51,816 nt of DNA from the IMG/VR virus record IMGVR_UViG_2627854066_000007, one strand, 5' to 3'. Source of the stretch: a virus (lineage: Duplodnaviria > Heunggongvirae > Uroviricota > Caudoviricetes). The notes below the pieces were generated by a model that saw only the letters and a program-made list of their open reading frames with translations, was not told where the DNA came from and did no database searches. Below are positions 1,127 through 48,533 of the stretch, piece after piece. The position numbers and the translations under genes were made by a program. Numbering within the stretch: the stretch's first letter is position 1; each line of letters opens with the position of its first letter.

Positions 1127-2665
1127 TTATTCAGCTGGCAGTGCTATGCGCCACGGAAGCAGTTCGCTGACCCGGTTGACCGGCCAGTCTGCTATGACGC
1201 CAAGCACATGGCGAAGGTAGCTTTCTGGATCCACGTCATTCAGTTTGCACGTCCCTATCAGGCTGTACAGTAGCGCTCCCCGCTCACCACCATGGCCAGA
1301 GCCGAAGAACAGGAAGTTTTTACGACCCAGACTTACCGCCCGCAGGGCATTTTCAGCGATGTTGTTGTCGATTTCCACCCAGCCATCGTTCGCATAGTAC
1401 GTCAGTGCCGGCCACTGGTTAAGTGCGTACGCGAACGCCTTCGCCAACTCTGAGTGTCGCGACAGGGTCTTCATCTTTTCACGCAACCAGCTTTCCAGGG
1501 ATTTCAACAGCGGTTTCGTTTTTCGCTGACGTTCAGCAAGCCGCTGCTCTGCCGGCATTCCCCTTATATCCGCCTCTATGGCGTACAACTGACCGATCTG
1601 CTCCAGGGCTTCTTCCGTCAGTGCTGACGGGATGCGGACGTGCACATCGTGGATCTTTCGGCGGGCATGAGCCCAGCAGGCAGCTTCCGTTATCCCACCA
1701 TTGCGATACAGCTCGTTGAACCCGGCGTACGCATCCGCTTGCAGCACACCGCTGAAGCAAGCAAGATGAGTCTGCGGATGGATGCCTTTTCTGTCCGGGC
1801 TGTAAGCGAACCACACTGCAGGTGCCAACGCTGACCCGGCATTGCGGTCATCACGAACATACGCCCACAACCGCCCGGTCTTCGTCTTCTTATTACCCGG
1901 CATCAGTACCTGGACCGGGGTATCATCGGCATGGAGTTTGCCGTCAGTCATGACATAGCCATGAAGCGCCTCTTCCAGCGGAGACAGCAGCCGGCAGCAT
2001 GCATCCACCCAGCCCGACAGCAGTGAACGGCTCAGCTCCACACCTTGCCGGCCGTATATTTCTGACTGGCGATACAGCGGGGTGTGCTCTGCATACTTCG
2101 AGGTCAGCACGCGGGCCAGCAGCCCCGGTCCGGCGATACCCCGCTCGATGGGCCGCGAAGGTGCAGGTGCCTGCACGATGGCATCGCACTGAGTACAGGC
2201 ATGTTTTTCCCGTACCGTCCGGATAACCCGGAAGGCGCTACGCATCAACTCCAGCTGTTCGGCGGTATCCTCGCCCAGATAGCTCAGTGAACCGCCGCAG
2301 TTCGGGCAGCACGGCGCCGCAGGCAACAGTCGCTTTTCGTCACGGGGTAGTGATTCAGGGAACGGCTTACGGATGCGGGTCTGACGCAACGGACGCTGTA
2401 CTGCCGGGTCATACACCCTACCAGTCAGCGTATCGCTCTCTTTCTGAAGCTGGTTCAGATCGGCTTCCATTTGTGCGATACGGCGGGAGACTTTTTCGGA
2501 ACGACTGCCGAAGTTCATCCGGCGGAGTTTATCCAGCTGCGCCTGCAGATGGTCTATTTCGCGCTCCCGGTTGCTCAGCTTTTCCTGCAGGGCGTGGATC
2601 AGCGCTTCCTGTTCGGCCAGGCGCTGTTTCAGCAGGAAGATGTCGTCAGAAGAGATGTCGTTCAT
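1127..2665 (-). CDS. tnpC: IS66-family transposase TnpC
   Basis: 512-aa ORF with N-terminal leucine-zipper-like coiled coil, CxxC zinc motifs and DDE-type core; a paralog is at 37170-38708. Confidence 0.9.
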
Positions 2666-2714
2666 AAGCCCGTATTTTACCGGGCTTATTCTGTGACAAC
2701 CAGGATAAAGAGAT

Positions 2715-3062
2715 TTACAGCATGGTCAGGGAGGTCAGCAGCCGCTTAGGCTGTCGCCAGTCGATACCTTCCAGCAGCATCGCCAGCTGCGCCTGTGTAA
2801 GGAACACTTTGCCATCACGGGCTGACGGCCAGGCGAAGCGCCCACGCTCCAGCCGTTTGGTCAGGAGGCACAGTCCGTCACCGGTGGACCACAGCAGTTT
2901 AACCTGACTGCCGCTGCGGCCCCGGAAAATGAAAACATGGCCGGACATGGGATCGTCTTTCAGCGCCGTCTGTACTTTCGCAGCCAGGCCGTTGAAGCCA
3001 TTTCTCATATCGGTGATACCGGCAACCAGCCAAATTTTGGTCCCGGAAGGTAAAGGGATCAT
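2715..3062 (-). CDS. tnpB: IS66-family accessory protein TnpB (Orf2)
   Basis: 115-aa ORF directly upstream of tnpC, overlapping tnpA stop by 4 nt; near-identical paralog at 38757-39104. Confidence 0.85.
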
Positions 3063-3460
3063 CGCTTCAGTTCCTGTATCAGCAGAGTCAGGAGCTTTTC
3101 GCTGACATTGCCATTGAAGCGGAGCGTCCCGTGCCGGAACGTTACCTCACAGCTGATACTGAGGGTTTCCGGGTCCTCTGCGAGCGATTCTGGCTGTTCG
3201 GCAGCTGCATCGAGAGTCACAGGAAGTAGCTGGGGGCTCTCTGAAGAAGGTAATAGCAGCTTTCCCTCGCGCCATTGTTGTCGCCATTTGAACAACAGAT
3301 TGGCGTTAATGCCATTTTCAAGAGCAAGTTTTGAGATGGATATCCCGGGTTCACAGGAGGCAGCAACGAGCTGCTGTTTAAATTCGGGAGGATAATTAGG
3401 GCAGCCTTTTCGCCTGCCGGGAGTCACATTTTTCTGCATATCTGACACTTTGGTTCCCAC
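3059..3460 (-). CDS. tnpA: IS66-family accessory protein TnpA (Orf1, HTH)
   Basis: 133-aa ORF, first gene of the IS66 three-gene operon; paralog at 39101-39505. Confidence 0.8.
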   Translation of the reverse strand: MGTKVSDMQKNVTPGRRKGCPNYPPEFKQQLVAASCEPGISISKLALENGINANLLFKWRQQWREGKLLLPSSESPQLLPVTLDAAAEQPESLAEDPETLSISCEVTFRHGTLRFNGNVSEKLLTLLIQELKR

Positions 3461-3657: not shown

Positions 3658-4953
3658 TTAATTTTTCATTGCTTCGTTATGGGGCATGGTTGGGGCAAAC
3701 TCGCTTAACTGTGTATTTAACAAAGCTACCTGTGCATTATTGTTTTCAGACATCCATTTTCCGTATACCTGAAATACCATTTGCGCATCTGCATGGCCCA
3801 TCTGGTTTGCTATAAATGCCGGGTTAGCACCAGCTGTCAGCGACCAGCAGGCATAAGTATGTCTCGACTGATATGATTTTCGATGGCGGAGTCCGGCACG
3901 TTTTATCGCTGCGTCCCACATCTGCCTTATTGAGTCAACGGTAAAATGGTCACCATAATTTTTTACTCTCGCTGACACTTCAGGTTGAAAAACAAAGGTG
4001 CATTTTTGTTTTTCTGTTCTGCCATACTCTCTGAGGTGAACATCAATGATATGCTCTTTGCTCAGTCTCGTTAATGTCATCTGACTCCGGAGAGCGTCGA
4101 TTGCTGGCTTAATAAGATGAATGACCCGATTGGTTCCCGCCTGTGTTTTTGGTACCGTGAAACGGTCTTTTGCTAAATTTCTCCTGATCATCATTGTTCC
4201 ATTTTTCAGATCTATGTCCTCCCATCCAAGTGCACACAGCTCACCAGGGCGAACGCCAGTATAAACAGAAACACACCATAAATTTTTTGCTTGCTGATTT
4301 CTGCACGCATCGATAAGACGGATAAATTCCTCCCGCGAAAGAGGATCCGGAATGGTTCTTGATTCCTTTAATGGCGAGATCCCCTTAAACGGATTATCTG
4401 GCAGGTAACCGTTATCAACACCAAACTGGAACACGGCGTTAAGATTTGTCATGTAATTATTTACAGTTACAGCCGATCTCCCTGGTTGTGTAACAATATA
4501 GTTACTTTTGGGGATCTGGTATCCAGTCAGTAGCTCTTTACGAACCTCCAGTAATTTTTCTTTATTAATCGATGAGGCAAGATTTTTTTCACCGATTATG
4601 CTCAGGATATTTTTGATGACGGCACGGTATGTGTTGAGTGATGTTTTGGCGACTTCAGTTTCTTTCAGTGCCAGAAATTTTTCAGCCAGTTCTTTTATGG
4701 TTAAATCTTGTCGGGCCTCACCAAATTTTTCCAGATTGCGTGAGGAGGGAAACTGTTTTGCATAGTCGAAAACACCAGTTTTTATTGCGTAACAAACAGA
4801 GGAGCGTAGTTCACCTGCAACGCGCCTGTTTTTTGCTGTGTCAGGAACCCCCAGATTTTCCCTGACTCTTACGCCTTTATAAACAAACCAGATACGTAAT
4901 TTCCCTCCATGGTTTTCCACGCCTGTCGGATATTTCATTTCAACTTCTCTCAT
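3658..4953 (-). CDS. int: Phage integrase (tyrosine recombinase)
   Basis: 431-aa ORF adjacent to attL; C-terminal catalytic region with RxxR...HxxRH...Y-type motifs (RSQMTLTR, HTYACW, QMGHADAQMVFQVYGKW); true start may be the internal Met at residue 6. Confidence 0.9.
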   Translation of the reverse strand: MREVEMKYPTGVENHGGKLRIWFVYKGVRVRENLGVPDTAKNRRVAGELRSSVCYAIKTGVFDYAKQFPSSRNLEKFGEARQDLTIKELAEKFLALKETEVAKTSLNTYRAVIKNILSIIGEKNLASSINKEKLLEVRKELLTGYQIPKSNYIVTQPGRSAVTVNNYMTNLNAVFQFGVDNGYLPDNPFKGISPLKESRTIPDPLSREEFIRLIDACRNQQAKNLWCVSVYTGVRPGELCALGWEDIDLKNGTMMIRRNLAKDRFTVPKTQAGTNRVIHLIKPAIDALRSQMTLTRLSKEHIIDVHLREYGRTEKQKCTFVFQPEVSARVKNYGDHFTVDSIRQMWDAAIKRAGLRHRKSYQSRHTYACWSLTAGANPAFIANQMGHADAQMVFQVYGKWMSENNNAQVALLNTQLSEFAPTMPHNEAMKN

Positions 4954-4972: not shown

Positions 4973-5224
4973 TCAAGTAAGATGACGTCTTGGTCTCGCT
5001 GATGCCTGGCGCTCAATCCAGCGATCAATTTCTTCCAGGTTGTAAAAGCATGGACTGTTATCCCATGGCATACTGTCATGAGCGACATGCTTATATTCCC
5101 TTCCTTCCATAAACGATTTTTCCCGGGCCTTTTTTAACGTACCTTTTTTTATTCCTTTCAGCGCAATTAACTGCTCTTCGGATACCCATTTGCCGGGAGA
5201 GACAATCATGATTACTTCGCTCAT
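4973..5224 (-). CDS. xis: Excisionase-like small protein
   Basis: 83-aa basic ORF immediately upstream of int on the same strand; assignment is by position and size. Confidence 0.55.
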   Translation of the reverse strand: MSEVIMIVSPGKWVSEEQLIALKGIKKGTLKKAREKSFMEGREYKHVAHDSMPWDNSPCFYNLEEIDRWIERQASARPRRHLT

Positions 5225-5296: not shown

Positions 5297-7768
5297 TTAA
5301 GAATCAGCCTGACTCGGGATCAGTTTTTGCCAGATAACTGAAACGTATTTTGCCTGGTAACGGGCGTCATCAAGTGCATTATGGCGCTCACCTTCGAATG
5401 GAATAGCCGTTCTGGCATCGAAGTCTATGGCTTTCCCCAGCTCAACGATTGTGCGTACATCGCGATCGTTGTAGTAACGCCACGGGCAGGGGATCCCCTG
5501 CCGTTCGTATGAACGGCGCAAAATCGTGTTGTCGAAGTTGGCTCCATTTCCCCAAACCTGAACAAAAAATTCACTGGAGTTTTCGTCGATAAATTCCCGC
5601 AATTGTAACAGTGCATCATCTAACGGGATTTCATCGGTCATAATGGCAGATTGCGCTTCGCGTGATTGCTTAAGCCACCATTTAATGGTGTCCCGATCAA
5701 TGACTCCGCCAGCAGTTTCCAGATCGATAGTCTTACTAAATTCCGGTCCCATATCTCCGGTTTGCGGATCGAAAAATATTGCACCTATTGAGATGATCGG
5801 GGCATCAGGATTTTTTCCCATGGTTTCAAGGTCGATCATTAGATGGTCACACGTCCTGCTGGTGGATGTGATTTCGTGATGACCGTTCACCTTAATTGAG
5901 TGATCTGCCGTCTCGCCAGTTTCATTATCGCTATTGTGATGCTGATTGCCGCCAGTGTTCTCCTTGTGTGGATGTTCAGCGCCTTCCATTTCCTCCGGAT
6001 CATCTTCCTGAACTTCAACCTGATACTCTTCATCGAATGTTTCTTGGTATGTTGCGTCGCCCATCACCGCGCCACAATCAGGGCAGTTGCCGCCGCCGGT
6101 CTGACCGCAGGCGGTGCAGACTTTTTCCACTTCCTGTTGCGCCACTGGTTCAGGCTGTTTCGTTTCTGGCTCGTTTTGTAACGCATTTGTGCTGTTTTGT
6201 TCCGCTTTTTGGTAGTTCCGTTCCGATTCATGCTGGTTCTGGTTCACAGAATCGCGGGTCTGGATCCCCTTAACCCATTTCGGATCATTCGGGTCACTAA
6301 TCCCTTCAACAAATTCACCACGTGATGCAGCAAGCAACTTATCGGCGTCAGGCTGGCTGATATTGGCTGCCTGCATAATTTTGTTTACTTCGTCAGCGGT
6401 AACTTTTATCGGCTCTGGTTGTTCTGAATCTTCAGCGGTATCTACATTTTGCGGTAAGCCCGTGTATGTGCCATTTTTTCGGGCAAAATATTCTTCTTTT
6501 GTGATTTCAGTGGCGCCAGCAGCCAGTGCCTTATCCAGACCAGAAAGTTTGTTTGCGCGACCGTATTTTTCTCCGTCCTTATCTGCGAAGAGGAAATAGA
6601 ACGGCCCCTCACGCTCTACAGATGGTTCAGCTTCCGGCGCGGTTTCATTTTTTGGGATATCAGATACCTCAGTTTCCACTGCATCAGTTTGTGTTTCTGA
6701 TGACTGGAGAACATCAACAGTGCCCAGGTCTGTTTCTTCATTCTCAAACACGCCCTTTGTCGTCAGGTATTCGCAGATATATTTGTTCAGTGCTATGGGA
6801 TCTTTGTGAATGTCGATCGGACGCTCACGGACAAGGCCAAAAATAGTCTGGCGGTCGTAGCGAAGGGCATCAGGCTGTTTGCGCATTGATGCCGAGATAC
6901 GCTTCCAGTCTTCGCGGTCGTTGTCGATAACTTCTTTTTTTGCCCAGCGATGGATGCTGCCGTCAATGTTTCCGGCATCCACATCACCAGGCCAGAGAGC
7001 GTAGGCCAGTTCGTCATCCAGTGTTTTCCATGTCTGCTTGTATTCGCGATGAATGGCAGCAATGACCGGGCTGATTTTTCCTGTTGAATTTTCAGTGTAC
7101 TGTTGATTGGCTCTGGCGCGGGCGAGATCAACAACAGACGTGTATTTTCCGGTTTCCTTGCGTTCACCTTCGCGACGTTTTTTCCAGATGCGCATCTCTG
7201 CCTGAATTTCGGGCCATTTAGCACCAGGAATACATTTATGCTTAACCCACCCAATGGCGTGCAACTTAAGCTCCGGATACATGGCGTTAACTTCTGGCAT
7301 TTTCATCAACGCTTCAACGATATGTCCGTCGAATGTTGCCATGTCTTCCTGCAACAATTCCTGTGCGCTAATAACCATATCAACGGTGATGTTTTCACAT
7401 GTGTCGAACTTAACCATGACAGCGTTCTGTACTTCAGGGGCCAGCTTGTCAAAAGTGACGTTCATCGGATCGGATTCAGTCTCAACCGGGACAAAAGAAG
7501 CAGACTCCTCATCCCAGCGGTTTTCCTGCATATATTCAGCATCCCATGAATCGAGGGCAGGGCGGGGTATGCCAGGTTTATCCTCGCAGACAATAAATTT
7601 ATAAGCGCAGTCCTGAGCAGCCGGATAATGTTCCAGGAACTGCCAGTGAAATTTTGCTCGAGCACGGCGTTCGTCGCCAGCTTCAATGGCTGTGGCTACA
7701 GCCACAGCGCCTTCTTCCCTTGTTGCCAGTTCGTCAGGAATAGCGGCGCAAATAAAGACTTTACTCAT
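5297..7768 (-). CDS. Phage exonuclease with C-terminal DEDDh-type 3'-5' exonuclease domain
   Basis: 823-aa ORF; C-terminal ~200 aa carry DLET, NGANFD and HNALDDA motifs consistent with the DnaQ-like DEDDh fold; a long acidic low-complexity linker precedes the domain. Confidence 0.75.
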   Translation of the reverse strand: MSKVFICAAIPDELATREEGAVAVATAIEAGDERRARAKFHWQFLEHYPAAQDCAYKFIVCEDKPGIPRPALDSWDAEYMQENRWDEESASFVPVETESDPMNVTFDKLAPEVQNAVMVKFDTCENITVDMVISAQELLQEDMATFDGHIVEALMKMPEVNAMYPELKLHAIGWVKHKCIPGAKWPEIQAEMRIWKKRREGERKETGKYTSVVDLARARANQQYTENSTGKISPVIAAIHREYKQTWKTLDDELAYALWPGDVDAGNIDGSIHRWAKKEVIDNDREDWKRISASMRKQPDALRYDRQTIFGLVRERPIDIHKDPIALNKYICEYLTTKGVFENEETDLGTVDVLQSSETQTDAVETEVSDIPKNETAPEAEPSVEREGPFYFLFADKDGEKYGRANKLSGLDKALAAGATEITKEEYFARKNGTYTGLPQNVDTAEDSEQPEPIKVTADEVNKIMQAANISQPDADKLLAASRGEFVEGISDPNDPKWVKGIQTRDSVNQNQHESERNYQKAEQNSTNALQNEPETKQPEPVAQQEVEKVCTACGQTGGGNCPDCGAVMGDATYQETFDEEYQVEVQEDDPEEMEGAEHPHKENTGGNQHHNSDNETGETADHSIKVNGHHEITSTSRTCDHLMIDLETMGKNPDAPIISIGAIFFDPQTGDMGPEFSKTIDLETAGGVIDRDTIKWWLKQSREAQSAIMTDEIPLDDALLQLREFIDENSSEFFVQVWGNGANFDNTILRRSYERQGIPCPWRYYNDRDVRTIVELGKAIDFDARTAIPFEGERHNALDDARYQAKYVSVIWQKLIPSQADS

Positions 7769-7861: not shown

Positions 7862-8053
7862 TTAAAGACCTGCCGGGATTTCGATATTATCCTGGTGAAT
7901 AACTTTATCGACCGGGTAACAGTTACCGGGAATTTTCTGTTCGGTTGCTGCTGTCATACACTCCTGCATTGTCCTGTGAACACTGACTGCAATATCAACT
8001 GGCTCTCCGGAAACAAGAAAAACTGTCAGAACAAGCGCAAATGCTGAATTCAT
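7862..8053 (-). CDS. ydfD: YdfD-like small membrane/lysis protein
   Basis: 63-aa ORF from an internal Met (MNSAFALVLTVFLVSGEPV...) with an N-terminal hydrophobic segment; overlaps dicB stop. Confidence 0.55.
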   Translation of the reverse strand: MNSAFALVLTVFLVSGEPVDIAVSVHRTMQECMTAATEQKIPGNCYPVDKVIHQDNIEIPAGL

Positions 8054-8238
8054 TGTGCACATCCTTTTGGCATCAGACGTAAACGAGCCAGCATTGAAAC
8101 AATGCATATTTTATTTAATAGCTCCCGTTCTTGTTTTCTCTTGTTAATGGCATCTTCAGTAAATACAGGGTTACTGATAGTGACACCAATTTCAAAACAA
8201 CCTTCAGACGTATTAACGTTTGGTAATAACGTTTTCAT
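8050..8238 (-). CDS. dicB: Cell division inhibitor DicB
   Basis: 62-aa ORF MKTLLPNVNTSEGCFEIGVTISNPVFTEDAINKRKQERELLNKICIVSMLARLRLMPKGCAQ, matching DicB as I recall it, ~175 nt downstream of dicF. Confidence 0.7.
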   Translation of the reverse strand: MKTLLPNVNTSEGCFEIGVTISNPVFTEDAINKRKQERELLNKICIVSMLARLRLMPKGCAQ

Positions 8239-8411: not shown

Positions 8412-8466
8412 ACGGCGGCAGAGCAGTCACGGAGTAAAACTGATACCGCCAAACGTCACCAGAAAA
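8412..8466 (-). ncRNA. dicF: DicF small regulatory RNA (ftsZ-targeting)
   Basis: Reverse complement reads TTTTCTGGTGACGTTTGGCGGTATCAGTTTTACTCCGTGACTGCTCTGCCGCCG followed by a T-run, matching the DicF sequence as I recall it and ending in its terminator hairpin. Confidence 0.75.
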
Positions 8467-9607: not shown

Positions 9608-10015
9608 TTATTTTATTGATTTATTTTTACGCGCTTTAAGCATTTCTTCGAAGAGTTTGTTGAAGTTTTCTACTCTTGCGCGCATTTCAGACAGCAAGGC
9701 TTCCTGCTCGGAAGATGGAAGAGCATCGAATAATTCGATCAATTCTTTGTGGTTGGGAGTTAGCTCTGTTTCCACATGAAGTTCTTGTGCAGGCACTGGT
9801 GCCTTGTCTTCGTCACCAAACATTAGCCATGTAGGTGAGCACTTCAGAGCATCCGCTAAAGCAAACAATCGTTTTCCGACTGGCTGGGTTTCGTCTCTTT
9901 CCCATTGTGAAATTGTGACGTGAGCAACTCCAGCGAGGCGCGCAGCTTCTCGTTGTGTTAAGCGTAATTCTTTTCGTCGCGCCAGAACTCGCTGGCCTAG
10001 GGTTCTTGTATCCAT
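9608..10015 (-). CDS. dicA: HTH-XRE repressor DicA (CI-like immunity repressor)
   Basis: 135-aa ORF with N-terminal helix-turn-helix (LTQREAARLAGVAHVTISQWERDE), divergent from the Cro-like dicC. Confidence 0.9.
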   Translation of the reverse strand: MDTRTLGQRVLARRKELRLTQREAARLAGVAHVTISQWERDETQPVGKRLFALADALKCSPTWLMFGDEDKAPVPAQELHVETELTPNHKELIELFDALPSSEQEALLSEMRARVENFNKLFEEMLKARKNKSIK

Positions 10016-12749: not shown

Positions 12750-13775
12750 ATGCACATTTTATCTGTTTCAAAAAAGGAAGTTGGAAGAGCTGGGGATAGA
12801 TTAGTTTCTCAGTTTGGTACAGGTGAAAAATATAAAGAGGAAGATGTACAAATTCTTCATGAGTGGAGGATGTTGCATTTATATCCTTTAAGTAAAATAC
12901 AATTTTATATGGAAAGAGAGGCTATTTCCTTAAACAAAAATGCGTTACTATCCTCTAGAATTAAGAGGATGCCTTCCATTGTTACTAAGCTTTCTAGATT
13001 TCCTGATATGAAGTTAAATAAGATGCAGGATCTTGGTGGGTGCCGGGCTATTTTAAATAATCTGGATCAAGTGTATGATTTAGTTAATAAAATAAAATCA
13101 TCTAAATTCTCACATGAACTAGTTAGAATGGATGATTACATGATAGACGTGAAAGATTCTGGTTATAGAAGCTTTCATATGGTCTATTCATTCCAAAATA
13201 AAAAATTTCCATCTTTAAATGGGTTGCGCATTGAAATGCAAATAAGAACAGCTATTCAACATAGCTGGGCTACAGCAGTTGAAATGGTTGGTTTGTTTCG
13301 AAAGGAATCATTGAAATCTGGTTTTGGTGATGCAAGATGGCTTAGGTTTTTTGAATTGGTATCAGAGCTTTTTTATAAACTTGAGTATGAAAAAGAACCA
13401 TCTGGGAGTTATATAAAAATATCAGAAGAATTAAGTTATTTATCCGTCGAGTTGAATGTTTTCGATATATTAGCTGCTTACAATGCCGTAGTTAGCCATA
13501 TTGAGGGTAGCAAAAAATATGATAAAGGACTTTGCATAATTGTTGTTGATACCATAAAGCGGAATATAAATATAAAGAGCTTCGAAAATCACAATCATGC
13601 GAAGGCGGCAGAAGCTTATGTCGAGTCTGAAAAATACTGCGCGGAAAATAAAGGCTGTGAAGTGGCTATGGTTTCTGTTAGTTCAATTAGTGAATTAAAA
13701 AATGCATATCCTGCTTACTTTTTAGATACGAAAACTTTTTTAAATTATCTCAGTAGGTATGTTTTTATAAAATAA
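12750..13775 (+). CDS. RelA/SpoT-like nucleotidyltransferase (small alarmone synthetase-like; candidate toxSAS/CapRel-type)
   Basis: 341-aa ORF carrying RSH synthetase motifs in order: R70-x-K72-x3-S76-x3-K80, D94-LGGCR99, G138-YRSFH143, E162-MQIRTAIQHSWA174; gene is strongly AT-rich versus flanks; ~120-aa C-terminal extension beyond the catalytic core. Confidence 0.8.
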   Translation: MHILSVSKKEVGRAGDRLVSQFGTGEKYKEEDVQILHEWRMLHLYPLSKIQFYMEREAISLNKNALLSSRIKRMPSIVTKLSRFPDMKLNKMQDLGGCRAILNNLDQVYDLVNKIKSSKFSHELVRMDDYMIDVKDSGYRSFHMVYSFQNKKFPSLNGLRIEMQIRTAIQHSWATAVEMVGLFRKESLKSGFGDARWLRFFELVSELFYKLEYEKEPSGSYIKISEELSYLSVELNVFDILAAYNAVVSHIEGSKKYDKGLCIIVVDTIKRNINIKSFENHNHAKAAEAYVESEKYCAENKGCEVAMVSVSSISELKNAYPAYFLDTKTFLNYLSRYVFIK

Positions 13776-14298: not shown

Positions 14299-14509
14299 TT
14301 TCATATTGGCGAGGTAAAGGTAGTTAAGTAGAATGGCTGCGGGTGCTTGAGGCTATCTGCCTCGGGCATGAACACCAAAGGCAGATAGAGAAAAGCCCCA
14401 GTTAACATTACGCGTCCTGCAAGACGCTTAACATTAATCTGAGGCCAATTTCATGCTAGACACATGTAGGTTAGCCTCTTACGTGCCGGAAGGCAAGGAG
14501 AAGCAGGCT

Positions 14510-14665
14510 ATGAAGCAGCAAAAGGCGATGTTAATCGCCCTGATCGTCATCTGTTTAACCGTCATAGTGACGGCACTGGTAACGAGGAAAGACCTCTGCG
14601 AGGTACGAATCCGAACCGGCCAGACGGAGGTCGCTGTCTTCACAGCTTACGAACCTGAGGAGTAA
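14510..14665 (+). CDS. hok: Hok-family type I toxin
   Basis: 51-aa ORF MKQQKAMLIALIVICLTVIVTALVTRKDLCEVRIRTGQTEVAVFTAYEPEE, a canonical Hok/Gef sequence; in-frame upstream extension from 14453; structured leader upstream. Confidence 0.85.
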   Translation: MKQQKAMLIALIVICLTVIVTALVTRKDLCEVRIRTGQTEVAVFTAYEPEE

Positions 14666-17662: not shown

Positions 17663-17970
17663 TAGGGGACAGAAAAACTCCTTAATACTGATAACCTGGT
17701 GCACCATACACACGTTCCTGGAGAAAACTACTTTTTTGATAGGGTTGAAGGTGGCTGGATGTCTAAAATAAACATTGCTTCATATGTTCAACTATGAGTT
17801 AATGACTGCGTCGGTTTGAAGAACAGACGATATACGAAGTAGTTTACTAAAGCAGTTCTCATTTCAGGTGTTATTCACTTATTCCTTCTTTGAGTCTCTC
17901 CAATTAAGTACGAAGTCGTTTCTGTTATGCAAACCATTTATGCCGAAAGGCTCAAGTTAAGGAATGTAGA

Positions 17971-18186
17971 ATGTCAAATAAAATGACTGGTTTAGTAAAA
18001 TGGTTTAACGCTGATAAAGGTTTCGGCTTTATTTCTCCTGTTGATGGTAGTAAAGATGTGTTTGTGCATTTTTCTGCGATTCAGAATGATAATTATCGAA
18101 CCTTATTTGAAGGTCAAAAGGTTACCTTCTCTATAGAGAGTGGTGCTAAAGGTCCTGCAGCAGTAAATGTCATCATTACTGATTAA
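17971..18186 (+). CDS. cspB: Cold-shock protein CspB-like
   Basis: 71-aa [41 protein letters not shown]... with RNP1/RNP2 cold-shock-domain motifs; long AT-rich 5' leader. Confidence 0.85.
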
Positions 18187-18467
18187 AATTCATCGCTCGT
18201 CTGTATACGATAACGAAGAAGGCTGATGCCTGAGTAGAGATACGGACAGAGTAGTGAATATTGGATCTCTTTAATAAAAAGTAAGGAGGTCCAATACATG
18301 AAACAATGGCCAGCATATTTGGCAAAATCTTAATCAGGAAAAGTATGCTAACCATTGTGGTGAAGTGCAGGTTTGCTGCATGAATAGTTTTACAGCAGAA
18401 GCTAACTGCTGGCATGGCAAAACAAAGTGCGTAAGTGGATGACTCCCACAAAAAGCACCACAATCTC

Positions 18468-20495: not shown

Positions 20496-20859
20496 GGTAA
20501 TATTAAATCGGAACATTTACATCGCGGAATGTAAAATTTAAATAAAAAGGACTCTTCCATGAGCCAAAATTCCTGAAATCTTAAGGGTAAGATAAAAGGT
20601 CTTAATCAGAATGACACGTTTTATTAATAAATAAAGCTATTCTTTCATTGCTGTGTTTTTCTTTACAAAAGTAATCCTTGCTATGGGTGGTTAATCATGC
20701 GTTAATGGTGTTCTGGTTTGTTACAAATTTATCTGAAGCAGTCATTTTTATAATTTTATTATTTGTACCTCTTGAGATTTCCTTGTTGGTTTTTCTCTCT
20801 GATATTTTTTTTTTCGGACCATTCTGCCCAAGGGCTAATTTCTTCAAAAGGTAATAATT

Positions 20860-21072
20860 ATGTCTAACAAAATGACTGGTTTAGTGAAATGGTTTAACCC
20901 TGAAAAAGGTTTTGGTTTCATCACGCCGAAAGATGGCAGCAAAGATGTGTTTGTCCATTTCTCAGCAATTCAGAGCAACGATTTCAAAACATTAACTGAG
21001 AATCAGGAAGTTGAATTTGGTATTGAGAACGGACCTAAAGGTCCTGCCGCTGTTCATGTAGTGGCGCTTTGA
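20860..21072 (+). CDS. cspI: Cold-shock protein CspI-like
   Basis: 70-aa [41 protein letters not shown]...; long AT-rich leader upstream. Confidence 0.85.
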
Positions 21073-21343
21073 GGTAGACAATATTACAAACCATATTCAC
21101 TTTAGATGCCCGTGTTGTCATGGTTCCCAGTATAGAACATCATCTTTTGATGTTTCTGACATGAATCCTTTCGGGGCAAAATGTATCTTTTGTAAATCAA
21201 TGATGATTACATTTGATAATATTTCACAATACTTAAATGCCAGCCGTCTGTCGTTGGATTTAAAAAAGTGAAAATGAAGGCTCCTTCGGGAGCTTTTTTG
21301 CTTGGTGTCTATTCGATGGATACTCACATACTACGGTAACATC

Positions 21344-37169: not shown

Positions 37170-38708
37170 TTATTCAGTCGGCAGTGCTACGCGCCAGGGG
37201 AGCAGTTCGCCGACCCGGTTTATCGGCCAGTCGGCTATGACGTCAAGGACATAGCGGAGGTAGCTTTCTGGCTCCACTCCGTTCAGTTTGCACGTCCCGA
37301 TCAGGCTGTACAGCAGCGCTCCCCGCTCTCCTCCATGATCCGAACCGAAGAACAGGTAGTTTTTGCGGCCCAGACTGACCATCCGCAACGCATTTTCAGC
37401 GATGTTATTGTCCGCCTCAGCCCAGCCATCATCTGCATAGTACGTCAGCGCCGGCCACTGGTTCAGGGCGTATGCGAACGCTTTCGCCAGTTCTGAGTGT
37501 CGCGACAGGGTTTTCATCTTTTCACGCAGCCAGCTTTCCAGGGATTTCAGCAGCGGTTTCGTTTTCAACTGACGTTCGGCAAGGCGCTGCTCCGCCGTCA
37601 TTCCCCTTATCTCTGCCTCGATGGCGTACAGTTCGCCGATCCGTTTCAGCGCTTCCTCCGTCAGGGCTGACGGGGTGCGAACGTGCACATCGTGGATTTT
37701 ACGGCGGGCGTGAGCCCAACAGGCGGCTTCCGTTATCCGGCCATCCCGGTACAGCTCGTTGAACCCGGCGTATGCATCCGCCTGCAGTACACCACTGAAC
37801 CCCGCAAGATGGGTCTGCGGATGGATGCCTTTTCTGTCCGGGCTGTAAGCGAACCACACCGCCGGCGCCAGCGTTGACCCGGCGTTACGGTCGTCACGAA
37901 CGTAGGTCCATAACCGCCCGGTCTTCGTTTTCTTATTGCCTGGCAACAGCACCGGGACAGGCGTGTCATCAGCATGGAGCTTACCGTCAGTCAGCACATA
38001 GTCCTGAAGCGCTTCTTCCAGCGGTGACAGTAGCCGGCAGCATGCATCCACCCAGCCCGACAGCAGTGAACGACTCAGCTCCACGCCCTGGCGGCCGTAC
38101 ATTTCAGACTGGCGGTACAGCGGGGTGTGCTCTGCATACTTTGAGATCAGCACGCGGGCCAGCAGCCCCGGTCCTGCGATACCCCGCTCGATGGGCCGTG
38201 AAGGCGCGGGGGCCTGCACGATGGCATCGCACTGAGTACAGGCATGCTTTTCACGTACAGTCCGGATAACCCGGAAGGCGCTGCGCATCAGCTCCAGCTG
38301 TTCGGCGGCATCCTCACCCAGATAGCTCAGCGAGCCTCCACATTCCGGGCAGCATGACGCTGCCGGCAGCAGCCGTTTTTCATCGCGGGGGAGTGATTCG
38401 GGGAACGGTTTGCGGGTGCGGGTTTGACGCAGCGGGCGCTGCACGGCCGGGTCGTCAACCCGACCGGTAAGGGTATCACTTTCTTTCTGAAGTGCCTTCA
38501 GGTCAGCTTCCATCTGTGCGATACGACGGGAGACTTTTTCCGAGCGGCTGCCGAAGTTCATCCGGCGCAGCTTATCCAGCTGTGCCTGCAGATGGTCTAT
38601 TTCGCGTTCACGCTCGTTCAGCTTTTCCTGCAGGGCACGGTTCAGCGCCTCCTGTTCGGCAAGGAGACGTTTCAGTGCATTGATATCGTCAGGAAGTGAG
38701 CTGCTCAT
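37170..38708 (-). CDS. tnpC: IS66-family transposase TnpC (copy 2)
   Basis: 512-aa ORF, paralog of 1127-2665 with scattered substitutions. Confidence 0.9.
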
Positions 38709-38756
38709 ACCGGGTATATTACCAGGCTCATTCAGCGTCGACCAGGATAAAGAGGC

Positions 38757-39104
38757 TTACAACATAGTCAGGGACGTAAGCAGTCTTTTAGGCTGCCGCC
38801 AGTCGATACCTTCCAGCAGCATCGCCAGCTGTGCCGGTGTGAGGAACACTTTGCCATCCCGGGCTGACGGCCAGGCGAAGCGGCCGCGCTCCAGCCGTTT
38901 GGTCAGCAGACACAGTCCATCGCCGGTAGACCAGAGGAGCTTTACCTGACTGCCATTACGCCCACGGAAGATAAAAACGTGACCTGACATCGGATCGTCT
39001 TTCAGCGTCGTCTGCACCTTTGCCGCCAGGCCGTTGAAGCCGTTTCTCATATCGGTGATGCCAGCGACCAGCCAGATCTTTGTCCCTGATGGTAATGGGA
39101 TCAA
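38757..39104 (-). CDS. tnpB: IS66-family TnpB (copy 2)
   Basis: 115-aa ORF, near-identical to 2715-3062. Confidence 0.85.
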   Translation of the reverse strand: MIPLPSGTKIWLVAGITDMRNGFNGLAAKVQTTLKDDPMSGHVFIFRGRNGSQVKLLWSTGDGLCLLTKRLERGRFAWPSARDGKVFLTPAQLAMLLEGIDWRQPKRLLTSLTML

Positions 39105-39505
39105 CGTTTGAGCTCCCGTATCAGCAGGTTCAGGATATTTTCACTGATGGCACCATTCAGACGGAGTGATCCGTGCCGGAACGTCACTTCACAGCTGATA
39201 TTGAGTGATTCAGGTGTCGCAGTAGCTACAGGTTGTGACCGGGGGGAGGTTGTAGGGACAACATCTTCGGCATCAAGTGTTATCGGGAGCAGCTCAGGCA
39301 CGTTGTTTTCTGTTGTTGAAGGAGGACGTAGTTTTCCTTCGCGCCAGTACTGGCGCCACTTGAACAGCAAATTATCGTTGATCCCATGCTCACGAGCGAG
39401 TTGCGCTACGGAGATCTCTGGTCGATGCGAGAGTTCAACCATTTTGATTTTGAACTCAACGGGATAATTAGGGCTTTTTTTACGCACTGCGGTTAATGAT
39501 TTCAT
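39101..39505 (-). CDS. tnpA: IS66-family TnpA (copy 2)
   Basis: 134-aa ORF; N-terminus differs from copy 1. Confidence 0.8.
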   Translation of the reverse strand: MKSLTAVRKKSPNYPVEFKIKMVELSHRPEISVAQLAREHGINDNLLFKWRQYWREGKLRPPSTTENNVPELLPITLDAEDVVPTTSPRSQPVATATPESLNISCEVTFRHGSLRLNGAISENILNLLIRELKR

Positions 39506-47931: not shown

Positions 47932-48533
47932 TGGCATTCAGAATGAGTGAACAACCACGGACCATAAAAATTTATAATCTGCTGGCCGGAACTAATGAAT
48001 TTATTGGTGAAGGTGACGCATATATTCCGCCTCATACCGGTCTGCCAGCAAACAGTACCGATATTGCACCGCCAGATATTCCGGCTGGCTTTGTGGCTGT
48101 TTTCAACAGTGATGAGGCATCGTGGCATCTCGTTGAAGATCATCGGGGAAAAACCGTCTATGACGTGGCTTCCGGCGACGCGTTATTTATTTCTGAACTT
48201 GGCTCGTTACCGGAAAATGTCACCTGGTTATCCCCGGAAGGGGAATATCAGAAGTGGAACGGCACAGCCTGGGTGAAGGATACGGAAGCAGAAAAACTGT
48301 TCCGGATCCGGGAGGCGGAAGAAACAAAAAACAGCCTGATGCAGGTAGCCAGTGAGCATATTGCGCCGCTTCAGGATGCTGTGGATCTGGAGATCGCAAC
48401 GGAGGAAGAAACCTTGTTGCTGGAAGCCTGGAAAAAGTATCGGGTGTTGCTGAACCGTGTTGATACATCAACTGCACCGGATATTGAATGGCCAGCCCTA
48501 CCGTATGGTAAGATATATAAATTCTATAATTAG
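47931..48533 (+). CDS. Tail fiber assembly protein (Tfa)
   Basis: 200-aa ORF starting at the stf stop (TAATG overlap), Tfa-like size and position. Confidence 0.85.

Follow-up and report, generated by a model that had tools for sequence, protein, structure and literature searches.

The stretch of DNA considered here (51,816 nucleotides, hereafter the window) is the IMG/VR virus record IMGVR_UViG_2627854066_000007, assigned to the Caudoviricetes. Positions 5297..7768 of its minus strand carry an intact ydfE-type 'exonuclease' gene, whose product of 823 amino acids (aa) appears in the list of open reading frames (ORFs) and is identical to RefSeq WP_001695751.1. The frame of 823 codons opens with an ATG at 7768 and closes with a stop codon at 5297-5299, and GAGG stands at Shine-Dalgarno spacing before the start. 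A previous sequence-based note, called here the original prediction, described the product as an early-region exonuclease with a DEDDh domain and an acidic linker. A check of the sequence finds the ORF, the quoted motifs DLET (646-649), NGANFD (741-746) and HNALDDA (796-802), and the Cys cluster CTACGQTGGGNCPDCG (551-566) where that note placed them. We argue below that the protein is probably modular and unites a RecE-family scaffold, an acidic tether and a nuclease resembling DexA of phage T4.

The nuclease occupies the C-terminus (aa 641-823; 5300..5848, minus strand). Residues 642-813 match the Pfam family PF16473 (Rv2179c-like DEDDh) with E=1.8e-67 and 226.9 bits against a cut-off of 27, over positions 2-177 of the 177 in the profile. 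Its five catalytic residues (D646, E648, D746, H796 and D801) do not vary when the domain is aligned with T4 DexA and three coliphage homologues that stand alone. When the Protein Data Bank (PDB) was searched with phmmer, only the T4 DexA entries 8KEL and 8KEN were matched (E=1e-6). Foldseek also placed T4 DexA 8KEL at the top of the PDB matches (E=2e-8); behind it came RNase T, a DnaQ domain and the oligoribonucleases (Orn/REXO2), all with probability 1.00. The ratio of non-synonymous to synonymous substitution rates (dN/dS), computed throughout against diverged copies, is 0.12 for this domain in the comparison with the E. albertii copy. The DnaQ-like DEDDh 3'-5' exonuclease domain of the original prediction is thus borne out by the family match and the five catalytic residues. 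The domain is very likely an active 3'-5' exonuclease, and homology suggests that its substrate is DNA rather than RNA. The DNA exonuclease DexA itself belongs to PF16473 (E=2.4e-22), so that the 'exoribonuclease' name of the family leaves the substrate unsettled. Production of a free nuclease domain from an internal start at M644 was considered and rejected, as a Shine-Dalgarno-like sequence is absent there.

Upstream of the nuclease, the protein is related to RecE (exodeoxyribonuclease VIII) of the Rac prophage of K-12. BLASTP aligns residues 262-625 to RecE 278-591 with 39% identity over 364 columns. The two proteins are nearly identical from about residue 470 to 625, a part which includes the Cys cluster and the acidic tail, and the similarity ends at RecE 591, just ahead of the crystallised nuclease domain of RecE (606-866). 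The NCBIfam equivalog model of RecE, NF007259, gives 282.9 bits against a cut-off of 1269 and covers residues 246-625 only (model 271-602). In the Pfam search, the 823-aa protein matches neither the C-terminal PD-(D/E)XK domain of RecE (PF12684/DUF3799; RecE 615-850, E=4e-28) nor PF06630 (Exonuc_VIII; RecE 2-178, E=6e-98). The original prediction had named a non-nuclease C-terminus or a RecE-type N-terminus as findings that would overturn it. The C-terminus is a nuclease fold; on the other point the outcome is divided, with no PF06630 domain found and residues 262-625 being a RecE homologue. Because of this homology, the protein is a RecE-scaffold chimera and not an unrelated exonuclease.

The likeness to RecE extends to size and general layout, since both proteins place a nuclease at the C-terminus of a long non-catalytic region, and to the position of the gene in the early-left operon upstream of xis-int. 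Within the homologous middle region they share a helical core, a GISDPNDPKW segment, the CxxC-x7-CxxC cluster and the acidic tail. In contrast, the RecE nuclease is a PD-(D/E)XK enzyme of the DUF3799 type (5'-3') whereas the nuclease studied here is of the DEDDh type (3'-5'), the PF06630 domain of RecE is unrelated to the N-terminal ~240 residues of the 823-aa protein, and recT is adjacent to recE in Rac but missing downstream of the 823-aa gene.

AlphaFold (AF2) models built from family alignments divide residues 1-345 into three folded sub-domains, and fold the DEDDh domain over 641-820. Sub-domain 1 (aa 1-96; 7481..7768, minus strand) is of α/β type, with a predicted local distance difference test (pLDDT) score of ~90 and a dN/dS of 0.06-0.15. 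Sub-domain 2 (aa 101-205; 7154..7468, minus strand) is helical, again with pLDDT ~90, and has a dN/dS of 0.17-0.27. The third is a core helical module (aa 245-343, folded over 245-340 in the models; 6740..7036, minus strand; dN/dS 0.15-0.19), recognised from the phmmer architecture table and the alignment. This module (residues ~245-345) is the sole segment common to all architectures of the family, including RecE (aa ~250-362). Fold searches with residues 1-345 gave no informative match. A newer Pfam release labels this region PF27430 and PF27432 (precomputed labels only), and sub-domain 1 is probably PF27430.

The region between the third sub-domain and the nuclease (346-640) is strongly acidic (isoelectric point, pI, 4.35; 61 D+E against 24 K+R). 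The AlphaFold pLDDT falls below 50 at 344-383, 439-457, 499-549 and 569-636. The acidic and largely disordered linker which had been predicted is thus present, although it spans ~300 residues instead of ~200 and is broken up in three places, by a folded domain (385-435), by a helical pair (458-482) and by the Cys knuckle. The small folded domain (aa 385-435; 6464..6616, minus strand; pLDDT 89-95) has the lowest dN/dS of the entire 823-aa protein, 0.02-0.07. No family match was found for it; in relatives it accompanies the YdfE-type N-terminus irrespective of the C-terminus. The two helices at 458-482, which are predicted with moderate AlphaFold confidence, lie in a shared joint segment (aa ~455-498, ...DADKLLAASRGEFVEGISDPNDPKW; 6275..6406, minus strand) that DNA comparison shows to be flanked by mosaic junctions on either side. 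The Cys cluster (6071..6118, minus strand) is a zinc-knuckle-like CxxC-x7-CxxC motif common to K-12 RecE (aa 517-531). Its dN/dS against recE is 0.08 over 19 codons and the AF2 confidence is ~60 (about 550-568). It occurs in K-12 RecE and in phage 813R8, and in one of 54 diverged family representatives. The cluster was therefore rejected as a defining feature of the scaffold and is considered a lineage-specific insert. Finally, an acidic low-complexity tail (aa 569-640; 5849..6064, minus strand) leads to the nuclease. It contains 19 D+E against 3 K+R (pI 4.37), has pLDDT values of ~26-36 and a dN/dS of 0.46-0.92, and is common with RecE up to residue ~625 (RecE 528-591 in the BLASTP alignment).

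Over the entire protein, dN/dS mirrors the predicted folding: it is 0.02-0.27 in the folded units and 0.35-1.8 in the low-confidence stretches. Purifying selection acts on the folded parts. The acidic disordered linker is accordingly real; it behaves as a spacer, is almost neutral in evolution, and is longer and more structured than was originally noted.

The family to which this scaffold belongs is narrow, as residues 1-345, searched exhaustively against 1.84 billion representatives, found only 168 relatives. The diversity discussed here derives from this representative-level search. Word-indexed homologue searches, with a single sequence or with a 14-sequence profile, retrieved almost only near-identical E. 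coli fragments, and a scan of genome contigs with a narrow alignment gave 7 loci. When the full-length relatives were classified locally, YdfE-type and RecE-type N-termini were each found with both DEDDh and PD-(D/E)XK nucleases, and many relatives bear still other C-termini. DNA comparison places internal mosaic junctions of the 823-aa gene at codons ~454, 498 and 622. The gene of a Rac-like prophage (our locus L012) is 89.6% identical in DNA up to codon 498 and unrelated beyond. The gene of phage 813R8 shows 98% DNA identity from codon 454 on, with a RecE-type N-terminus before this point, and K-12 recE is 78% identical in nucleotides over codons 475-622. As a separate observation, a large group of relatives of 700-790 aa (P0133, P0139, P0159, P0182 and ~14 others) have a YdfE-type N-terminus and are labelled 'exonuclease' (PHROG 2489/7838). 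Their C-terminus gives no significant Pfam match; in two of three tested, a sub-threshold match to Rad52_Rad22 was seen (E=0.007-0.017). These proteins may be scaffold-annealase fusions misnamed as nucleases.

E. coli chromosomes, from birds and from other sources, match the window, and all of its 51,816 bases are collinear with NZ_CP059917.1 2407403-2459218. It represents a Qin-type lambdoid prophage beside rspB, the site also used by the cryptic prophage Qin of K-12. On the minus strand, the early-left region contains in order a DicA-like repressor (9608-10015), a DUF1391 gene, an ORF of 125 aa, the small RNA DicF (8413..8464; Rfam RF00039, 72.5 bits), the cell-division inhibitor gene dicB (8050..8238; Pfam PF05358, E=9.6e-40, with the same call by the Prokaryotic Genome Annotation Pipeline, PGAP), ydfD (7862..8053), the 823-aa gene, xis and int. 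The ydfD gene, which encodes a DUF1482 lysis protein (Pfam PF07358; PGAP at the identical locus), lies directly upstream of the 823-aa gene in the same operon. Directly downstream follow the excisionase gene (4973..5224, minus strand; Pfam PF06806, xisR in PGAP) and the tyrosine integrase gene of the prophage (3658..4953, minus strand; Pfam PF00589 and PF12167, PGAP). The 823-aa gene closes the dicF-dicB-ydfD early-left operon ahead of xis-int. No promoter-like site was found on the coding strand directly upstream of it.

Residues 1-256 are 100% identical to the product of the K-12 pseudogene ydfE (b1577), so that the gene of the window is an intact ydfE. The K-12 copy shares the site next to rspB and the dicB-ydfD context; it differs in being truncated by IS2, with nothing after residue 256 and hence no nuclease.

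The original prediction assigned the gene to the early recombination slot and remarked on the lack of a Bet/RecT partner between it and dicB. The gene does occupy the recE position of the early-left operon, but the wording 'recombination slot' presumes a recombination role. The missing partner is confirmed: ydfD alone intervenes towards dicB, and xis-int come directly after. The 72-nt gap between the stop codon and xis is gene-free, while Rac, ordered recE-recT-ralR-rcbA-xis-int, has recT at the corresponding spot. No gene of the RecT/Bet/Erf/Sak type is annotated anywhere in the prophage, and Pfam assigns none of the early-left ORFs (dicB, ydfD, DUF1391 and the 125-aa ORF) to an annealase family.

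The same picture is obtained for related loci. Among 80 related IMG/VR viral contigs, 77 have the DEDDh C-terminus and the other 3 are cut by contig ends; two RecT queries detected no RecT homologue within 7 kb at any of the 77 DEDDh loci. No RecT is adjacent at the DEDDh loci L003, L010, L011 and L013, nor at the E. ruysiae and E. albertii copies or in phage 813R8. Conversely, the RecE nuclease cassette overlaps recT in all sampled rows, recT is likewise adjacent in K-12 Rac, and L012, which ends in a PD-(D/E)XK domain of the DUF3799 type, is followed by a gene of the RecT family (PF03837, E=2.7e-44). In the sequences compared, the DEDDh versions have lost the nuclease-plus-recT cassette as a unit. 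Set against the SynExo two-component recombinases, the 823-aa gene has no adjacent annealase gene and encodes no PD-(D/E)XK 5'-3' exonuclease, its polarity being read from the fold. That an annealing protein is consistently missing speaks against a two-component recombinase of the classical kind.

The DEDDh enzyme had been called an unusual choice for this slot. Its frequency in 5,426 complete E. coli genomes says otherwise: the DEDDh cassette is found in 4,043 of them (75%), at 8,053 places and with up to 7 copies per genome, compared with 1,730 genomes (32%) for the RecE nuclease cassette. The DEDDh form is thus the usual occupant of the slot in E. coli. The full gene is detected by megablast in 4,800 of the genomes, in 3,537 of them at a coverage of at least 80%. 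The exact protein is present on at least 1,000 contigs and falls into a 90%-identity cluster of 23,183 members, and PHROG 2082 ('exonuclease') matches it from end to end. On DNA matches of 100%, PGAP uses the names 'exonuclease' or '3'-5' exonuclease'; some names read '3'-5' exoribonuclease'. A protein with 99.5% identity is encoded by the plaque-forming Escherichia phage HannyBb, where the gene again lies in a dicB-ydfD-exo-xis-int arrangement. The gene is real and functional, has been catalogued previously and is uncharacterised.

The system closest in structure is T4 DexA (PDB 8KEL/8KEN), which shares PF16473 and the catalytic DEDDh residues and is the nearest solved relative by both sequence and fold. 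With ~24% identity, however, DexA is a stand-alone protein of 227 aa with extra loops from a virulent phage, whereas the domain described here forms the C-terminus of an 823-aa scaffold protein of a temperate phage. DexA is reported to switch between unmodified DNA and DNA containing 5-hydroxymethylcytosine (5hmC). Its E. coli homologue EcD reportedly cleaves only 5hmC DNA, with T4 DNA cut and unmodified DNA left intact, and protects against T4 when plasmid-borne, an activity termed 'HREX' (NAR 2025, PMC12153337). The EcD gene (GenBank HAK9828821.1) was recovered from viral contigs by means of the published primer sequence. It encodes 189 aa with Ala at position 78, as the publication states (PMC12153337), and is 38% identical to residues 641-823 over 174 aa. 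Both enzymes are prophage-borne PF16473-type DEDDh exonucleases of E. coli encoded in a prophage early region, but EcD stands alone, belongs to a P2-like prophage and is present in 31 of the 5,426 genomes. We note in passing that EcD, published as a 'bacterial' defence exonuclease, is a prophage gene (L124 7001-7570, E. coli S19-651), with a ParE-like toxin gene and a Dam methylase as neighbours in the P2-like prophage.

The residues linked to the specificity of EcD can be compared directly. D718 aligns with D90 of DexA, a tetramer contact, which is Asp in all six aligned sequences and Ala only in EcD (A78). Y766 takes the position of DexA W152 (EcD W132), with the aromatic character kept. At the position of DexA D169 and EcD E145 the protein has K779 or A780, in a loop which aligns poorly and has D782 and D784 nearby. 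As Asp is kept at the D90 position and the other EcD-linked residues do not clearly recur, the 823-aa protein should not be filed as HREX, although a low probability of such an activity remains. No PADLOC model matches it, and its classification as a catalogued defence protein was rejected.

Beyond the fusion, the nuclease domain is most closely related to stand-alone DEDDh proteins of the temperate coliphages 1720a-02 (AGR48394), LLS (gp34) and PhiR46_1 (XSB42754), which are 55-61% identical to residues 641-823. They too are encoded in early-left operons, in phage LLS directly upstream of xis-int. Unlike the 823-aa protein they measure ~190 aa and lack a RecE-type scaffold; they are likewise uncharacterised.

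Other parts of the window may be described briefly. It contains two IS66-family elements (tnpA, tnpB and a transposase of 512 aa). The first (1127-3460, minus strand) lies between rspB and the prophage integrase, the other (~37170-39500) within the tail-gene cluster, and in the matching record PGAP flags a truncated gene neighbouring the latter. With this insertion in the tail genes, the prophage can probably no longer assemble tails. A low-GC island (GC 0.35) that separates the replication genes from hokD, and has its equivalent place taken by relBE in K-12 Qin, encodes a RelA/SpoT-domain protein of 341 aa (12750-13775, plus strand; PF04607, E=4e-18). Against PADLOC, this protein gives a full-length match to the candidate defence model PDC-S33 (E=5e-119) and is probably, as judged by these matches, a prophage-borne defence or toxin moron of the alarmone-synthetase type. 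Rfam further identifies the sok antitoxin RNA adjoining hokD, two cspA-type thermoregulator leaders before the cold-shock genes of the prophage, and the IS009 RNA (jointly 14341-14515, 17810-18233, 20712-21099 and 48274-48472, plus strand). Such RNAs are typical cargo of Qin-type prophages.

For the protein as a whole, we favour a modular phage early protein in which a RecE-family scaffold, through an acidic tether, carries a catalytically intact DexA-like DEDDh nuclease in place of the PD-(D/E)XK enzyme of RecE; this nuclease would trim or degrade 3' ends independently of an annealase. The scaffold consists of the three N-terminal folded sub-domains, followed by the long and mostly flexible tether. 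On induction or infection, the early-left promoter, which the repressor controls, would drive transcription of the gene together with dicF-dicB-ydfD. The enzyme would then act as a Mg2+-dependent 3'-5' exonuclease on DNA 3' ends, with scaffold and tether possibly serving the targeting, the positioning or the oligomerisation of the nuclease. DNA ends would be trimmed or degraded by this protein alone, without an annealase, and it would not be a two-component recombinase of the Red/RecET type. Candidate substrates are host or competing DNA, which would amount to nucleotide scavenging as for T4 DexA, and replication or recombination intermediates which host functions would take up afterwards.

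Several points weigh against this proposal. Literature searches turned up no functional study, biochemical or genetic, of the 823-aa protein. The preference for DNA over RNA rests on homology, and Rv2179c, the founder of PF16473, is an RNase. The function of the scaffold is unexplained even in RecE (review PMC11611040). The 77 viral loci are near-identical and are not independent observations, so that their 'no RecT' count has little phylogenetic independence. Annealase families other than those reached by the two RecT queries would escape that screen outside the window.

The founder of the family leads to an alternative in which the protein is an exoribonuclease that trims or degrades the 3' ends of host or phage transcripts or of small RNAs in early phage development. 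PF16473 is named after this M. tuberculosis RNase, some PGAP names read '3'-5' exoribonuclease' and the structural neighbours include RNase T and the oligoribonucleases. Yet the closest solved relative by sequence and fold is a DNA exonuclease, T4 DexA, elsewhere the scaffold is joined to a dsDNA exonuclease and perhaps to an annealing domain, and according to structure entries RNase T acts on DNA too; an RNA substrate of this kind seems unlikely to us. We consider equally improbable that the gene encodes a prophage exclusion nuclease of the 'HREX' type, which would selectively degrade the hydroxymethylcytosine DNA of incoming T-even phages and protect the lysogen. The model of such an enzyme is EcD, with its cleavage of T4 DNA and its plasmid-borne protection (PMC12153337); the domain is homologous to EcD and to DexA, and EcD is likewise an early-region prophage gene. 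But the residue signature does not clearly recur, with D718 against A78, Y766 for W152 and Lys/Ala at D169/E145 (in the poorly aligned loop), a PADLOC match is lacking and the mechanism is known from a single study. Moreover, the gene lies inside the repressor-controlled dicB operon and lacks a separate promoter-like site, which leads one to expect silence in the lysogen.

The position in the operon is exactly that of recE, which raises the question of whether the protein supplies the nuclease for a true recombination system. The partner for annealing would then act in trans (host RecA/RecFOR or the RecT of another prophage) or be an unrecognised small neighbour. To our knowledge, the known phage two-component recombinases (Red, RecET) all pair an annealase with a 5'-3' exonuclease exposing 3' tails. 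An enzyme of 3'-5' polarity would remove the very tails which annealases use, and as no annealase is encoded either, the system is probably not a Red/RecET-type recombinase. The ~360 residues common to RecE, whose full-length form enhances linear-linear recombination (PMC11611040), and the sub-threshold hint of a Rad52-like domain possibly fused to the scaffold in some relatives count in favour of a recombination role. They have to be set against a prophage without an annotated annealase gene, against neighbours (dicB, ydfD, the DUF1391 gene and the 125-aa ORF, the last without a family match) that are all too small for annealases, and against the loss of the nuclease-plus-recT cassette as a unit in the DEDDh versions. 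On balance we assign this explanation a low likelihood. A decaying and functionless remnant of a cryptic prophage could be suspected from the K-12 pseudogene cut by IS2, from a fragmented copy in one Shigella genome (L014) and from the IS66-family insertion in the tail genes. However, the ORF is intact in the window, as it is in genomes by the thousand, the folded domains are clearly under purifying selection, the catalytic residues are invariant and the gene is carried by a plaque-forming phage isolate. The data on selection and conservation largely refute decay, which we regard as very improbable.

A bolder and more tentative reading, which we think possible but doubtful, extends the favoured modular model to the entire family. 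The RecE/YdfE scaffold would be a general delivery platform for swappable effectors of DNA ends. In some proteins the effector would be a 5'-3' exonuclease working with RecT, in others a 3'-5' exonuclease on its own, and in a third group perhaps a Rad52-like annealase fused to the scaffold. The DEDDh version would then serve an annealase-independent job outside Red/RecET recombination, in genetic conflict for instance: in the first minutes after induction it might destroy 3' ends, be they those of host DNA, of the DNA of a rival phage or of a defence molecule made of DNA. If this holds, the first 600 residues of RecE, long left unexplained, would serve as a targeting module, and the ligand could be found by comparing the natural swaps.

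The intact ydfE is among the most widespread prophage genes of E. coli. Its annotation wavers between 'exonuclease', 'exodeoxyribonuclease VIII' and '3'-5' exoribonuclease'. The 'Exonuclease VIII' labels on DEDDh genes are wrong, and such genes should be excluded from counts of RecET recombination modules. Through the domain swaps that nature provides, the small but old question of what the N-terminal two-thirds of RecE does can be approached. The importance of the DEDDh version would be greater if it took part in conflicts between phage and host or between phages, a role which has been claimed for EcD, its distant relative.

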